Of a stretch of DNA of 47,048 nucleotides, positions 1 through 47,048 are shown in pieces. This stretch comes from a virus (Duplodnaviria; Heunggongvirae; Uroviricota; Caudoviricetes). The position numbers were made by a program, and so were the translations under genes. Positions within the stretch are counted from its first letter, which is position 1, and each line of letters begins with the position of its first letter. A model generated the notes under the pieces. That model searched no databases and had not been told where the DNA came from. It was given only the letters and a program-made list of their open reading frames with translations. The stretch lies in IMG/VR virus record IMGVR_UViG_2563366978_000001; one strand, given 5' to 3'.

Positions 1-24
1 AGGAACAAATTTTAACGTTCCGAT

Positions 25-114
25 ATTGTGTTTTTATTTATTATCCGTTATTGTGTTCTGTTAGTTTGTGGCTAAGTTAACGCGTTATTAGTTATCTTAT
101 TCTCAAATTGTGTT
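25..114. repeat. Left telomere-proximal repeat cluster (ATTGTGTT at 25-32 and 107-114, GTGTTCT at 53-59); also the telN upstream region
   Basis: Direct reading; GTGTTCT is the reverse complement of the AGAACAC repeats at the right end. Confidence 0.6.
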
Positions 115-148
115 ACGATAATCCGAGCGGATAATCAGGAGAGGAAAG

Positions 149-2050
149 ATGAGCAAAGTAAAAATCGGTGAATTAATAAACTCACTTGTTAGCGATGTTG
201 AGTCAATAGATAACTCTGACCGTCCTCAAGGGGAGAAAACAAAAAAAATAAAGGCTGTTGCATTAAAATTTAAAAATGCATTATTTAATGACAAGCGAAA
301 GTTTAGGGGGAAAGGATTAGAAAAAAGAATTACAGCCAACACATTCAATGCCTATATGAGCAGGGCCAGAAAACGGTTTGATGATAAACTTCATCATAGC
401 TTTGAAAAAAATATACATCGCCTATCTGAAAAGTATCCTTTATATAATGAGGAGCTATTGTCATGGCTTTCTCTACCTGCTGCCGATATTCGCCAGAGAA
501 TGTCAGCTTTACAGGCAAAATTAAAATTAATTCTCCCTCTATCAGAAGATTTATCTAATATCAGAATTGGCGATAACAAAAGTCATAATAAGTTATTGAA
601 ATTATCAAATAAATATAAAGAGTGGCAATTCGCCATTTCTGATTTAACTAGCGATAACTGGAAAGATAAGCGCGATTATTTATATAAATTACTACAGCAA
701 GGATCTGCCTTACTTGAGGAGTTGAATCAGCTAAAAGTTAACCATGAGATTCTCTATCATCTTCAACTAAGCCCTGCCGAACGTGCATCTATCCAGCAAC
801 GATGGGCGGACGTTCTGCACAATAAGAAACGTAACGTGGTGGTCATTGATTACCCTAAATATATGCAAGCTATTTACGATATTATAAATAGCCCTGCTAC
901 ATTAAATAATCTAAACACTCGTTCAGGTATGGCTCCTTTGGCATTTGCACTTGCTGCATTGTCAGGAAGACGAATGATTGAGATTATGTATCAAGGTACA
1001 TTTACTGTTTCTGGTAAGTATACCGTTGATTTTTTAGGCCAAGCTAAAAAAAGAACTTCTGATAATATAACCAGAAAAATATATACATTATGCGAAGCAA
1101 AAACATTTGTTTATTTAATAAATGTACTTCGCTCATGCCCAGCAGCATCTGATTTTGATGATGTCGTTAAAGGTTATGGAGATAACGACACACGCTCTGA
1201 AAACGGACGTATTAATGCCATATTAGCAAAGGCTTTTAACCCGTGGGTTAAATCATTTTTCAAAGATGACCGCCGTGTTTATAAAGATAGTCGTGCTATT
1301 TATGCCCGTATTGCGTATGAAATGTTTTTCCGCGTAGATCCTCGTTGGAAAAACGTAGATGAAGATGTTTTCTTTATGGAAATTTTAGGCCATGACGATG
1401 AAAACACTCAATTACACTATAAGCAATTCAAGCTGGCCAACTTCTCAAAGACATGGAGGCCAAATACTGGAAACGAAAATACCAGGCTGGAAGCATTGCA
1501 GCAGCTTGATGACGAAATGCCTGGATTCGCCAGAGGAGATGCCGGGGTTCGTCTGCATAACACAGTTAAGCAGCTGGTAGAGCAGGACCCCTCTATAAAA
1601 ATCACGAACAGCACTCTAAGAGCGTTCAAATTTAGCCCAACAATGATTAGTCGATACCTGGAATTTGCTGCTGATGCTCTGGGGCAATTTGTTGGCGAAA
1701 ACGGACAATGGCAACTGAAAATAGATACTCCAGAAATCGTTATGCCTGACGAAGAAGAACTGGAAGCAATACCTGAACTGGCGGATGAATTATCAGAGGA
1801 TGACGATCTGGATGACGACGAAATTGAGATAGAGGAAGAGGAAGAGGAAGAGGAAGATAGCGTAGAAGAACAGCAACCGCCTGCACCTTCTTCGCCTGTA
1901 TCTAAGCCGGTATTTAAGCCGGTGAGAAATATTGGTGATGGCTCATACGTTGTTGAGTTTCATTATAATGGCCAGAATTATGCGTGGTCCGGCAGTGCAA
2001 ACAGCCCCATGTCAGCAATGCAGTTAGCATGGCTGACATATTTCGGTTAA
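149..2050 (+). CDS. telN: Protelomerase (telomere resolvase), N15 TelN-like, 633 aa
   Basis: 633-aa ORF with RBS AGGAGAGG upstream; length, N-terminus and acidic C-terminal tract match my memory of N15 TelN; sits next to the telomere end as in N15. Confidence 0.9.
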   Translation: MSKVKIGELINSLVSDVESIDNSDRPQGEKTKKIKAVALKFKNALFNDKRKFRGKGLEKRITANTFNAYMSRARKRFDDKLHHSFEKNIHRLSEKYPLYNEELLSWLSLPAADIRQRMSALQAKLKLILPLSEDLSNIRIGDNKSHNKLLKLSNKYKEWQFAISDLTSDNWKDKRDYLYKLLQQGSALLEELNQLKVNHEILYHLQLSPAERASIQQRWADVLHNKKRNVVVIDYPKYMQAIYDIINSPATLNNLNTRSGMAPLAFALAALSGRRMIEIMYQGTFTVSGKYTVDFLGQAKKRTSDNITRKIYTLCEAKTFVYLINVLRSCPAASDFDDVVKGYGDNDTRSENGRINAILAKAFNPWVKSFFKDDRRVYKDSRAIYARIAYEMFFRVDPRWKNVDEDVFFMEILGHDDENTQLHYKQFKLANFSKTWRPNTGNENTRLEALQQLDDEMPGFARGDAGVRLHNTVKQLVEQDPSIKITNSTLRAFKFSPTMISRYLEFAADALGQFVGENGQWQLKIDTPEIVMPDEEELEAIPELADELSEDDDLDDDEIEIEEEEEEEEDSVEEQQPPAPSSPVSKPVFKPVRNIGDGSYVVEFHYNGQNYAWSGSANSPMSAMQLAWLTYFG

Positions 2051-2221: not shown

Positions 2222-3004
2222 CTATTTATTGGTGATTTCTGCTGGCTTTAGCTGCGCGGATAACTGCTCAAGTTTTTGAACTGCCAGTTCAAAATGCGCG
2301 GGTAACGCCTTTTCCAGATCAGAGTTAATATCGGTGATGGGTAAATCACCACACGACATACTCCGCCTACCCCCACGAACAACATCACGCAACAACTCTC
2401 GTTCATACGTGCGCATGTTCCCCAATGCCGACTCAGCAGCCGTCAAAATCCGGCGCAGTTCTGCCGTAATTGCTGGCAAATCATCAACCGTTATGGGGTT
2501 CGGGGATGGATTACGACACGCCCGACGCAAAGCTAACCATACACCGCTAATCCAGGCATTTCGGTACTGAAAACTTTGTGCTATATCGTTAATCAGCCCT
2601 CGCAGATACTCTTTCTGCCTCCAGTTCAACGGCTCCGCTGCTCGCATTGGCTCAGGCTCGATGTAAACGTACTCTCCATTTTTGCGAATAGAGGGCAAGA
2701 CTTCGTTCGTTACCCATTTGCGAAACCGCCAAGCTGTTGTGCCTTGCTTCACCGCGTCACGGCAGCGGAGGATCAGGGTGTATAGACCTGACTCTGAAAT
2801 AATATTTAGCTTTTGCTCTCCGCCAGGGGTGTAACTTAAAGTTACACCCTTTTCATCCTCATCCAGAGACATTAGCGCCTTCCGGGAATTAACGAGTCTT
2901 AAAGCATCACATACATCCTTAGCCACAAACCACGGCTCACCGTTAATCATCACTACACGAACCTGATGCTCTTCCTGAAAGGAAAAGACTGCTAACGCGC
3001 TCAT
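2222..3004 (-). CDS. Phage antirepressor-like protein (BRO-N type N-terminal domain), 260 aa
   Basis: N-terminus FSFQEEHQVRVVMINGEPWFVAKDVCDALRL resembles the BRO-N/antirepressor fold; last gene of a coupled operon. Confidence 0.7.
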   Translation of the reverse strand: MSALAVFSFQEEHQVRVVMINGEPWFVAKDVCDALRLVNSRKALMSLDEDEKGVTLSYTPGGEQKLNIISESGLYTLILRCRDAVKQGTTAWRFRKWVTNEVLPSIRKNGEYVYIEPEPMRAAEPLNWRQKEYLRGLINDIAQSFQYRNAWISGVWLALRRACRNPSPNPITVDDLPAITAELRRILTAAESALGNMRTYERELLRDVVRGGRRSMSCGDLPITDINSDLEKALPAHFELAVQKLEQLSAQLKPAEITNK

Positions 3005-3404: not shown

Positions 3405-3540
3405 TCCGTTTTATTGGTCGTGCTACCACCAGAGTTGCGAATCTCTTTATTGGTGGTAGCCCAGGCGGGGTTCGCAATACCGGTAAACGAAGAAACCGGC
3501 CCGACCGAAGTCAGCCCCACCTGAGCCACCATAATTCGGA
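3405..3540 (-). ncRNA. Candidate C4-type antisense regulatory RNA / structured leader upstream of the antirepressor operon
   Basis: GC-rich inverted repeats (GCTACCACC...GGTGGTAGC) immediately 5' of the first small ORF; by analogy with P1/N15 c4-icd-ant organisation; no homology check possible. Confidence 0.25.
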
Positions 3541-3694
3541 TATGCGCAGGTCTATACACACAAAAAAACACGCTGGCGCGTGTTGTGCGCTTCGTTTTGC
3601 CAGGATTGCGAAGTCCCGACTGCGGGATTTACCGCAGCGAGGTGACTTTACCTCCAAAACGACGCACACGTCAATAATTTGCAAAGACATTTTA

Positions 3695-44436: not shown

Positions 44437-45426
44437 TTAGTTATTTTTTACATCGGAAGAATTTCCAAACGCCTCCTCAAGAATAGATTCAATTTTACTC
44501 ATTAGGTGCGATGGTATTTTTCTGTTATCTAATTTTAATGTTGTGAAATTTTTCCCATATTTCGCCACAACACCGTCTCCATATTTCTTTTCCCTTTTCT
44601 CTCCATGTGAATTGTTTTTCTCAACAATAATGAAATCATGAAGAGCCTGTATTATTCTTTGCGCATCTAAACTTTCACCTGATTTTTTCATCCTCAGCAA
44701 CTGAGATGCAGCATTTTTCATGGCTGCTTCCTGTCCCTGATATGCTTTAAAAAGAGCGTCTCCTGCTCTGGCTGATAACTCACCAGGATGGTTAAATATT
44801 GCCAATATATCTTTAGGTAAACCGGCTGTATTAATACATCGGCTGATAATATTTCTATCCACGCCTTCGGCTTCAGCTAAAGATTTTACGTTACCGTCAA
44901 ATTCATGGAGCCTTCGCAGGTATCTTTTCCCCCTTTCATAGGCGCTGATAGGTCTATAGTCGTTGCCTATCTGCGATAACCATTGCATTTGTTCATCATC
45001 TAAATCGCCAATAAGAACACGATAATCGCATCCAGTTATAATGGCTGCTTTACGTCTTCGAGAACCATCAGCTACTTCAACAATACCTGACACTTTTCTT
45101 GCGAAAGCCGGATTTTGTTGCCCAGAAGTTAGAAAAGATGGAATTAAATCAGCTAGAGAAGATTCATTTAATAAATCTTGATCACGCTCATTACCTAGCC
45201 ATACCATTGTTGCCATTTCTACTTTATCTGCGGGGATCGTTTCTAACTTAAAGTTAACATTACGTCCGCATACTGGCAAAGTTATGCTATTACCGGTTAA
45301 TGAACTCAGTTGACGTTTTAAATCACCAACCATAGGTGATACCGGCTGATGTTCAGGTGCATGATGATTATTACTCATAATGCGATTAATATCCGGAGCA
45401 TTTTTTAGAAGAGAGCGTTGTTTCAT
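44437..45426 (-). CDS. sopB: Partition protein SopB (ParB family)
   Basis: 329 aa; conserved block ITLPVCGR...SGNERDQ...DGSRRRKAA...GNDYRP as in F SopB. Confidence 0.95.
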   Translation of the reverse strand: MKQRSLLKNAPDINRIMSNNHHAPEHQPVSPMVGDLKRQLSSLTGNSITLPVCGRNVNFKLETIPADKVEMATMVWLGNERDQDLLNESSLADLIPSFLTSGQQNPAFARKVSGIVEVADGSRRRKAAIITGCDYRVLIGDLDDEQMQWLSQIGNDYRPISAYERGKRYLRRLHEFDGNVKSLAEAEGVDRNIISRCINTAGLPKDILAIFNHPGELSARAGDALFKAYQGQEAAMKNAASQLLRMKKSGESLDAQRIIQALHDFIIVEKNNSHGEKREKKYGDGVVAKYGKNFTTLKLDNRKIPSHLMSKIESILEEAFGNSSDVKNN

Positions 45427-46592
45427 TCTTCGTTCTCCCAGCGAGGTTTTATTAGATCATCAAAAATTTCTCGACAAACAGGGTCCCATATAGAGACGGC
45501 ATTTCTCCATGCATTAAGTGTTGAACGCTGGTTTGCCGCTTGTTCAAATACTGTTCGCATTTTTATCTGACCTTTACCTACTTCATCGGTAACGCGTACA
45601 ACCTGACGTAATACCATTGATCCCCATGTATTTCTTATTTGCTCTTCCATCCATCGTGATTGATTTCCTGTAGTGAGACTATATTTAGTCAGAAGCAAGC
45701 GAACGGTCGGCTCAAATCCGCCTAGGTCAACGCTTTCTAGGAGATCGAGAAGCATTGTGAAAAACTGTAGAACAGAGGCGTAATCAAATAATTCTGCAGG
45801 GGTAGCAACAACGATAACGTCAGCTGCGCAAACAACGTTAATGGTTCCTGTACCGAGGTTTGGAGCACTATCTATAACGATAACATCGTAGTTATCCCAA
45901 ACTGATTCTATAGCTGCGCGTAGCATCAGGTGAGGAGGGTGAGGCAATTTACCCTGAGCATGATATTGCATGAGATCTGTTTCTATACGGTGTAAAGCTA
46001 GGCAGCTAGGAATAATGTCCAGTCCAGGCCAGCATGTTGGTTTTATAGCATATTCAGCGTTATCGCGTTCGCCCAAGTAAAATGGCAGTAAAGTATCCTC
46101 GGCATGTATATGTAAATCAGGTACATAACCGTGATACATGGAGGCTGTTCCCTGAGGATCGTTACCTTCAACTAAAAGAACACGATGACCTTGTAATGCT
46201 AGCCATTGTGCCTGATGTACTGCAGACGATGTTTTATAAACGCCGCCTTTGTGTGACATAACAGCAAGCACAACTGGGTTTTTATCTTGTGGCCGTTGGT
46301 TTGGGTTGCCAAAAACAGCTCGCATACTATTGATTTGATCTATGGTATAACCGGCACGACGTTCAACTCTTCCTCTCATTTCAAAGTCAGGTGCAGGTAA
46401 ACGCCCGTTCTTCTCAGCATCTCTTATTGCTTGAGGAGTTACACCAATTAAATCTGCTACTTCAGTTATCCCCCATCTACGCGTGATACGCCGAGCTTCA
46501 GGACTATCATCACCGAATTGAGCTATAGCAATTGCTTGGGTCATTTCTTGACCGCGCGTAACACAATCTTGTAATAACTTTTTCAAAGACAT
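45423..46592 (-). CDS. sopA: Partition ATPase SopA (ParA family)
   Basis: 389 aa; Walker A KGGVYKTS and long blocks identical to F SopA. Confidence 0.95.
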   Translation of the reverse strand: MSLKKLLQDCVTRGQEMTQAIAIAQFGDDSPEARRITRRWGITEVADLIGVTPQAIRDAEKNGRLPAPDFEMRGRVERRAGYTIDQINSMRAVFGNPNQRPQDKNPVVLAVMSHKGGVYKTSSAVHQAQWLALQGHRVLLVEGNDPQGTASMYHGYVPDLHIHAEDTLLPFYLGERDNAEYAIKPTCWPGLDIIPSCLALHRIETDLMQYHAQGKLPHPPHLMLRAAIESVWDNYDVIVIDSAPNLGTGTINVVCAADVIVVATPAELFDYASVLQFFTMLLDLLESVDLGGFEPTVRLLLTKYSLTTGNQSRWMEEQIRNTWGSMVLRQVVRVTDEVGKGQIKMRTVFEQAANQRSTLNAWRNAVSIWDPVCREIFDDLIKPRWENEE

Positions 46593-46613: not shown

Positions 46614-46691
46614 CTTTGCTTAATAATTATTGCTTTGCATATTTCTAGCAAATTGACATAGAAAAAGCAAAGTAAAACAAAAAAGGCAAAG
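46614..46691. promoter_or_regulatory. sopAB promoter/operator: CTTTGC hexamers at 46614-46619 and 46633-46638, inverted GCAAAG at 46667-46672 and 46686-46691
   Basis: Direct reading; F SopA autoregulates through CTTTGC repeats (from memory). Confidence 0.5.
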
Positions 46692-46882
46692 ACGAAGATT
46701 TGAGCAAAATCATCTTTTGTTTTATCCCTTAAATGCAAAAAAAAACAACGACAGGCTCATAACAAATTGATAATAAAGGATTTTTTAAAAGAAAGGAAAT
46801 CGTATAAAACTAGTGAAACATGATGAAAATCATCAATGAGATACGTTTCCTCTATTTATTCTCCTAATCCTCACCAACAAAA

Positions 46883-47022
46883 GAACACAATCAAAGATCG
46901 TAAAACAACAATAATAATTCACACAAAATAAAGAACACAAATACAGAAAACAACAACACAATAAAAACAAGAGAACACAAGCTATAAATATTACACCAAT
47001 AGAGAACACTAATCAAGAACAT
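46883..47022. repeat. Right telomere-proximal repeat array: AGAACAC at 46883, 46933, 46973, 47003, and AGAACAT at 47016
   Basis: Direct reading; spacing shortens toward the end (50, 40, 30, 13 bp). Confidence 0.65.
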
Positions 47023-47048
47023 ATCAGCACATAATTCCCCATTATACG
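47022..47048. other. Half of the telomere resolution palindrome (telO/telRL-like): TATCAGCACATAATTCCCCATTATACG
   Basis: Matches the N15 telRL half-site TATCAGCACACAATTGCCCATTATACGC as I remember it with 2 mismatches; the window ends one base short of the predicted symmetry centre. Confidence 0.8.

Follow-up and report, generated by a model that had tools for sequence, protein, structure and literature searches.

The repeats at the two ends of the 47,048-nt stretch of viral DNA analyzed here (the window) are, as judged by sequence comparison, this phage's counterpart of the repeats L1/L2 and R1/R2 that flank the tos site of phage N15. Their signal lies in the placement and orientation of the word AACACAA, not in its overall frequency. 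We consider it probable that these tos-type repeats derive from the telomere arm and provide secondary, lower-affinity binding of protelomerase (TelN), which would build an extended end complex and tie telN and sop expression to free TelN. For the window alone, this is an ordinary result: N15-like prophages carry such repeats as standard, and the left end of the record is incomplete. The wider interest is in a layout that is conserved across lineages and that makes the function of the tos flanks directly testable.

The window and its ends

On sequence grounds, the window is an N15-like (Ravinvirus) linear plasmid-prophage in its linear form. This assignment follows from its identities to N15, PhiR46_1 and YDC107_1 and from the positions of telN and sopA, which are the first and the last gene, respectively. 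DNA identity to phage N15 is 73% over telN and 75% over sopAB, with the same gene order, while the E. coli linear prophages PhiR46_1 and YDC107_1 are 96-99.7% identical to the window. The protelomerase gene telN (149..2050, first on the + strand, 633 aa) has its ATG 192 nt from the hairpin tip. At the other end, sopA (45423..46592, - strand), which encodes a parA-type partition ATPase, is the gene nearest to the right-end array on its inner side. The TelN product contains all four Pfam domains of TelK (TelK_N, muzzle, catalytic and stirrup), and it aligned with the TelK structure 2V6E over residues 1-536, stirrup included (E = 1.8e-295). Because that crystal holds the core site only, 2V6E is silent on flank copies. 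An Rfam scan gave no match at either end of the window. Elsewhere, a C4 antisense RNA (82 bits) and isrK (53 bits) exceeded the gathering score at 3449-3536 (-) and 3563-3638 (-), just past a Bro-N/antirepressor-like gene (2222-3004, -), as expected in a secondary immunity region of the P1/N15 type.

The right end of the window stops at ...CCATTATACG, 1 nt before the center of the telRL palindrome, CCATTATACGC/GCGTATAATGG (the slash marks the center). The sop-side telomere half-site, which is half of telRL, thus occupies 47022..47048 (+) without its last base only; it is annotated as 'telR site' in PhiR46_1, and the full palindrome is visible in relatives. The outer-arm motif of the window's own telomere, AGCACATAAT, equivalent to L3/R3 of N15, lies at 47026-47035 (+), 24 nt from the tip.

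The first-pass annotation had described arrays flanking a telomere at each end; the left telomere itself lies outside the window. Relative to its relatives, the window lacks 43 nt before base 1 (GCGTATAATGGGAAATTATGTGCTGATTTTCAGAACAAAGTCA) and 1 nt after base 47048, and the absent 43 nt comprise the whole telN-side half-site and one repeat copy. The telN-side half-site is missing from the window, therefore, because the left end begins 43 nt inside. The missing ends were deduced from PhiR46_1, from hairpin read-through in YDC107_1 and from circularized assemblies; the intact junction in p19KM1803_4, pEC12401-3 and others places exactly 44 nt between the last and first bases of the window. Several RefSeq plasmid records of relatives also begin at or near the window's base 1.

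In CP025712.1, p53EVA-1 and Rouxiella pSP2, a palindrome search that allowed at most 3 mismatches revealed palindromes that are almost perfect over more than 110 nt on each arm, centered on the hairpin tip, in which the telN arm is duplicated and inverted. A duplicated telN arm in YDC107_1 gives rise to a second, fragmented 'protelomerase' annotation. These long palindromes look like hairpin read-through, or a replicated telLL junction, that was caught by assembly. A single-base difference was also seen within the right half-site: 47036-47040 reads AATTCCCCATT, as in pEC12401-3, while PhiR46_1 and p19KM1803_4 have AATTTCCCATT on both arms, which is also found on the telN-side arm read through in YDC107_1. 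If the left arm is as in the relatives, this difference would make telRL an imperfect palindrome here.

Repeat copies on the two arms

The word AGAACAC, as the first-pass annotation had noted, recurs near the right end: four copies lie in the last 170 nt (+ strand starts 46882, 46932, 46972 and 47003), and in the window's right array their spacing does shrink, from 50 to 40 to 31 nt, start to start. The related word AGAACAT begins at 47016 (+), beyond the last AGAACAC. The reverse complements listed for the left end are also present, GTGTTCT once (53-59) and TTGTGTT three times (26, 51 and 108). The claim of one motif at both ends held in that a shared word exists, but that word is AACACAA(T) and not AGAACAC, because GTGTTCT occurs only once at the left end and TTGTGTT three times. 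Seven of the nine copies of AACACAA in the window are found in the terminal ~170 nt on the right (starts 46884, 46934, 46955 and 46974, +) and ~115 nt on the left (26, 51 and 108, -), which make up ~0.7% of the sequence, and all seven point 5'->3' toward the hairpin tip.

Over the whole window and both strands, AACACAA showed no over-representation (9 found, 8.2 expected), and AGAACAC was in mild excess (10 found, 4.6 expected; 2 of 100 shuffles reached 10). The predicted enrichment of the motif over shuffled sequence thus applies to its clustering at the ends and not to the frequency of AACACAA window-wide. For the ends, the right 200 nt and the left 148 nt were each shuffled alone with dinucleotides preserved, and the best k-mer of each shuffle was scored. 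Four copies of some 7-mer arose in 0.85% of right-end shuffles, and three copies of some 8-mer (the observed one being AACACAAT) in 0.05% of left-end shuffles; the counts observed for the named motifs were reached in 0 of 5000 end shuffles.

The window had been described as AT-rich, which is incorrect: it is 50% G+C, and A+T-rich at the ends only. The last 200 nt (46849-47048) show an extreme strand asymmetry, with 51.5% A, 23.5% C, 18.5% T and 6.5% G on the + strand. The left end mirrors this skew (T 40%, C 12%); on each arm, the 5'->3' direction of the A/C-rich strand is toward the tip. Such A+T-rich, strand-asymmetric DNA attracts nucleoid proteins, and the copies could in principle be bound by a host nucleoid protein, or by a phage protein other than TelN, such as SopB or a repressor. 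We regard binding by any of these proteins as very unlikely. Only two copies of AACACAA occur elsewhere in the genome, so this word does not act as the operator or centromere motif of other loci. In addition, the SopA operator hexamers, GCAAAG, cluster apart from the telomere repeat array, at ~46620-46700 upstream of sopA; hexamers of this type are the ParA/SopA-binding motifs of the F, N15 and phiKO2 partition promoters (PMC8465637). Finally, the repeat motif changes in step with the telomere arm, the very target of TelN.

For each 10-mer copy, the distance given is that of its far end from the hairpin tip. Six tip-directed copies lie on the sop side, at 168, 118, 97, 78, 47 and 34 nt. In E. 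coli and E. albertii relatives (46640-47048 compared with the loci L014 and L009), the sop flank is either ~99% or ~83% identical to that of the window, and the telN side is 98-99% identical. Across the 99% and 83% versions found in the E. coli group, four of the six copies persist, with one of the other two degraded and the second lost. The outermost copy, AGAACACAAT (46882..46891, +; 168 nt), has an N15 counterpart at 169 nt and is unchanged in the 83% variants. It is followed by AGAACACAAA (46932..46941, +; 118 nt), retained in the variant flanks apart from a C/T difference at a single position; by ACAACACAAT (46953..46962, +; 97 nt), lost in the 83% variants; and by AGAACACAAG (46972..46981, +; 78 nt), decayed there to GTACGC/GTACAC. 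Closer to the tip are AGAACACTAA (47003..47012, +; 47 nt), which is conserved in the variant flanks, and AGAACATATC (47016..47025, +; 34 nt), which abuts the telomere half-site and is matched in place by GGAACATATC in N15 and MStein-2023a. Motif columns of the sop flank were invariant in 77% of cases, compared with 62% elsewhere, a marginal difference (P = 0.059). The 83% version also has another sop-side outer arm, CGAAACATAAT, which makes telRL asymmetric in that version. This suggests, from the sequences compared, that one telomere arm was exchanged between lineages.

On the telN side, two copies read away from the tip, and three are directed toward it. The away-reading copies are CAGAACAAAG, which lies within the missing 43 nt at 31-40 nt from the tip, and AGGAACAAAT (1..10, +; 44-53 nt); N15 has GAGAACATAAG and CAGAACAATAT at the sites of these two copies. 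The tip-directed copies are all on the - strand. The first, AAAACACAAT (25..34; + strand ATTGTGTTTT), is 77 nt from the tip, and in a gapless stack its block was found in p53EVA-1 and Ecl78_P5 and, as the weaker ATTATGTT, in phiKO2. The second is another AGAACACAAT (50..59; + strand ATTGTGTTCT) at 102 nt. The third, GTAACACAAT (107..116; + strand ATTGTGTTAC) at 159 nt, sits within TTTGTGTTACGAT, the block with the highest conservation apart from the telomere.

The symmetry that had been claimed for the two arrays was not borne out, with six tip-directed copies on the right compared with two away-reading and three tip-directed copies on the telN side. Nor are the two arms true mirror images, as inverted identity stops ~26 nt from the tip. 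Helical phasing relative to the core site was considered and discarded as well: the copy offsets from that site (10, 23, 54, 73, 94 and 144 nt on the sop side; 54, 78 and 135 nt on the telN side) have no common phase. Two ORFs in the right array, 46833-47009 and 46891-47022 (-), were treated as chance ORFs in low-complexity DNA.

A repeat finder detected three copies of a 14-nt unit, TCCGNTATTGTGTT, on the left. On the right, it detected a 50-nt tandem pair (46865-46914 and 46915-46964, 70% identical) and a 34-nt pair (46927-46960 and 46998-47031, 76% identical), the latter of which puts the copy at 46953-46962 in register with the telomere's own arm. The sequence of the array points to growth by duplication of a telomere-proximal segment, in 50-nt and 34-nt units.

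Conservation of the layout and likeness to the telomere arm

Relatives were drawn from plasmid and E. coli collections, where tblastn identified ~230 N15-like plasmids in PLSDB; a TelN search for related loci in genome contigs yielded no confirmed relative. The comparison with N15 tos proposed by the first-pass annotation proved informative, as N15 has GAACA(C/T) copies on both sides of telRL. Conservation in related phages, the second expectation, was found on the telN side, where the copy distances of 77/78, 102 and 159 nt are kept to within 1 nt. In a distance scan, telN-side copies were located at 78, 102 and 159 nt in N15, at 78 and 102 nt in MStein-2023a and at 102 and 159 nt in phiKO2; the PY54 counterpart of the 102-nt copy lies at 101 nt. 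The same telN-side blocks appeared in two Enterobacter plasmids in the gapless stack, and Rouxiella pSP2, whose TelN is 62% identical, clearly retains the 159-nt block. The lineages that keep these distances have TelN proteins 62-78% identical to that of the window (tblastn), and the sequence between their copies has diverged. The distance from the tip to the telN ATG is similarly constant, at 190-192 nt in N15, MStein-2023a, phiKO2, the two Enterobacter plasmids, pSP2 and the window. A column-conservation profile of six lineages peaked at the half-site, at the 102-nt copy and at TTTGTGTTACGAT, which contains the 159-nt copy and is as conserved in this profile as the telomere itself.

The N15 tos site resembles that of the window in several further respects. 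Both lie between sopA and telN, have an identical telO core (CCATTATACGCGCGTATAATGG), carry GAACA(C/T)-type copies that resemble the outer arm, and place two away-reading copies beside telRL. On the sop side, both have a copy directly against the half-site (34 nt), and the copy at 168/169 nt is also common, while the remaining copies differ: the distances are 168, 118, 97, 78, 47 and 34 nt here, compared with 169, 121, 108 and 34 nt, together with more GAACAT copies, in N15. The flank DNA outside the blocks is too diverged to align. The N15 literature names two copies per side, whereas the window has more.

Shrinking spacing was rejected as a design feature. The sop-side GAACA(C/T) spacings of N15 are ~13, 35, 13, 42 and 32 nt, and pEA8_3 shows yet another pattern on its sop side. 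By these comparisons, the shrinking spacing is peculiar to the window's lineage.

The layout extends to phages with other motifs. PY54 has GTAACCCATT at 74, 101 and 149 nt on the tel side, close to the window's 77/78, 102 and 159 nt, and both PY54 and P840 have extra elements beside the palindrome, in the form of a 15-bp or 10-bp inverted repeat (PMC10612081). PY54 differs from the window in its motif, in its 42-bp palindrome and in a tip-to-ATG distance of 140 nt. The ATAACACAAT-type copies in the phiKO2 flanks, 102 and 159 nt from the tip, start with TAACAC, whereas those of the window start with GAACAC.

We next consider how the copies relate to the telomere arm. The flank consensus AGAACACAAT is identical to the window's own arm, AGCACATAAT, at 8 of 10 positions and to the N15 arm, AGCACACAAT, at 9 of 10. 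The window's copies are thus one step further from their own arm, because that arm reads AGCACATAAT and not AGCACACAAT. In a frame-free test, flank near-copies (at most 2 mismatches) of any 10-mer of a phage's own half-site were counted and compared with shuffles. They were enriched in N15, Ecl78_P5, PY54 and pHm21 (0 of 300 shuffles each, P < 0.004) and more weakly in phiKO2 (P = 0.017), and in the lineages with enrichment the matches were nearly all tip-directed. This near-copy test was not significant in the window (P = 0.88) or in Rouxiella. In PY54, the own arm that accompanies GTAACCCATT is GTAACCTATT, and in the Aeromonas plasmid pHm21, the flank copies are ATCATACACC and the own arm is ATCACACACC. 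As far as these sequences indicate, the flank motif changes along with the telomere arm in both. Rouxiella pSP2, by comparison, has kept GAACA-type copies despite a changed arm.

These data also bear on whether the copies are decaying relics of telomere-proximal duplications, produced by slippage or hairpin-templated repair and without present function. The 50-nt and 34-nt internal repeats (70-76% identical), of which the 34-nt pair aligns one copy with the own arm, speak for such decay. The loss or degradation of two of the six sop-side copies in a sister lineage and the variation of sop-side copy number and spacing among lineages are likewise in keeping with it. Decay alone does not account for the conservation of telN-side tip distances among lineages whose TelN proteins are 62-78% identical and whose spacers have diverged, or for the sharing of the layout by independent lineages with other motifs. 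We find it unlikely that the copies are relics only.

Promoters and a putative protelomerase assembly

In the linear prophage, the 192 nt that separate the closed hairpin from the ATG of telN, the first gene, must contain the telN promoter. It had been claimed that the left repeats overlap the telN promoter; this is very likely on geometry, but a consensus scan found no + strand promoter there, and the same scan of both ends gave no match on the relevant strands. Candidates were therefore scored with a position matrix of our own, for which random 192-nt windows of the genome gave a background 90th percentile of 8.2 and a 99th percentile of 10.3. One candidate telN promoter (26..54, +; score 7.8) combines a -35 element, TTGTGT (26-31), with a -10 element, TATTGT (49-54), and both hexamers are inside repeat copies; transcription from it is predicted to start near 61-62. 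Its counterpart scores 9.9 at the same place in N15, MStein-2023a, p53EVA-1 and Ecl78_P5. The other candidate is an extended -10 element, TGtTACGAT (111..119, +; score 7.6), which overlaps the copy at 107-116 and stands at a sensible distance before the telN ribosome-binding site (137-144), with a predicted start near 126-127. This block is kept in position, 35 nt before the ATG, in 11 of 11 stacked sequences and in six lineages. Neither telN candidate is compelling by score, because 7.6-7.8 is below the 90th percentile of the background.

On the other arm, a candidate promoter directed toward sopA (46988..47016, -; score 10.1), with -35 TTGATT (47016-47011) and -10 TAATAT (46993-46988), overlaps the copies 47 and 34 nt from the tip and scores near the 99th percentile; its position is not conserved in N15. 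Dorokhov, Lane and Ravin, of Ravin's group, reportedly described in 2003 a second sop promoter inside tos that is repressed by TelN. Autoregulation of telN through the repeats is plausible from the positions of these elements.

The conserved blocks might instead be mainly telN and sop transcription signals for host RNA polymerase or some ordinary regulator, with an incidental likeness to the arm. The elements in question would be the -35-like TTGTGT, the -10-like TATTGT/TACGAT and UP-like A/T tracts. TTGTGT and TATT(G/A)T are akin to sigma-70 hexamers, the top conserved non-telomere block is the extended -10 TGtTACGAT at its fixed distance from the ATG, and candidate promoters coincide with copies on both arms. 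Promoter scores are unremarkable, though, and transcription signals would leave unexplained the six same-strand copies over 140 nt on the sop side, the strict tip orientation, and the PY54 and Aeromonas arrays, whose quite different motifs correspond to their own arms. We judge transcription signals to be quite unlikely as the main role of the blocks.

The favored reading, that the copies are accessory protelomerase binding sites, was already put forward by the first-pass annotation and is the same as a published hypothesis for N15; our analysis supports it in part. In its favor are the agreement of the copy distances with those of N15 and other N15-like elements, the joint change of flank motif and arm in PY54 and the Aeromonas plasmid, and the four TelK domains of the encoded TelN; against it weigh the non-significant near-copy test in the window, the GAACA-type copies of pSP2 beside a changed arm, and the retention of only four of six sop-side copies in the 83% flanks. 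According to a 2025 study (PMC12624138, which summarizes Deneke et al.), the 56-bp telRL of N15, composed of a core and the L3 and R3 motifs, is enough for recombination, yet the natural TelN target is ~310 bp. The study describes L1, L2, R1 and R2, which flank telRL, as degenerate copies of the outer-arm motifs L3/R3 (Deneke et al. 2000, 2002), calls it 'conceivable' that CTD1 binds the flank repeats and recruits several TelN molecules, which might form a protective structure, and states that CTD1 is not essential for protection of N15 ends against Mre11-Rad50. All copies in the window are at most 168 nt from the tip on either arm, inside a region of the ~310-bp size given there. The tos fragment of pJAZZ extends ~195 nt to the left and ~170 nt to the right of the N15 center, as judged by its primers (PMC2847241), a span that takes in all N15 copies. 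In N15, telRL needs no flanking sequence for processing, either in vivo or in vitro, so some other role must fall to the flanks, while PY54 processing in vivo requires adjacent sequence (PMC3540006). In P840, the flanking inverted repeat is dispensable for processing (Hertwig et al., PMC10612081).

We infer TelN binding, hairpin capping and autoregulation as follows. The copies would be degenerate, mostly tip-directed versions of the outer-arm motif of the telomere, with duplication of the telomere-proximal segment as at least part of their origin. The core half-site would be filled first, and further protelomerase would then occupy the weaker copies, probably through the stirrup/CTD1 domain, to form a protelomerase coat of ~170 nt per arm. 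Such an extended assembly would be dispensable for cutting and rejoining but would help to cap the hairpin. Because it would cover the only DNA able to transcribe telN, together with the candidate sop-directed promoter, expression of telN and of the partition genes would be coupled to the level of free TelN. Our comparison singles out the copies with conserved positions, which on the telN side are those at 77/78, 102 and 159 nt and on the sop side those at 34 and 168 nt, and it also shows copies that are dispensable in nature and sites where promoters could be occluded.

More tentatively, the fixed telN-side layout, consisting of two away-reading copies, tip-directed copies at 77/78, 102 and 159 nt and an ATG at 190-192 nt, kept across enterobacterial telomere phages and mirrored with other motifs in PY54 and Aeromonas, might specify a multi-protelomerase 'telosome' that folds the arm, caps it against SbcCD and sets telN and sop transcription according to free protelomerase. 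We consider this doubtful; if true, the 'telosome' would amount to a minimal viral version of a shelterin-type end complex.

The telN leader has additional features. A palindrome, ATCCGAGCGGAT, is located at 120-131, between the candidate -10 element and the telN ribosome-binding site. A direct repeat of GATAATC occupies 117-123 and 130-136; 128-135 also has an inverted partner, ATTATCCG, at 40-47. N15 has none of these elements. In pEC12401-3, the counterpart of the palindrome is ATCAGAGCTGAT, with both arms altered together, and the palindrome may be a lineage-specific operator or leader hairpin.
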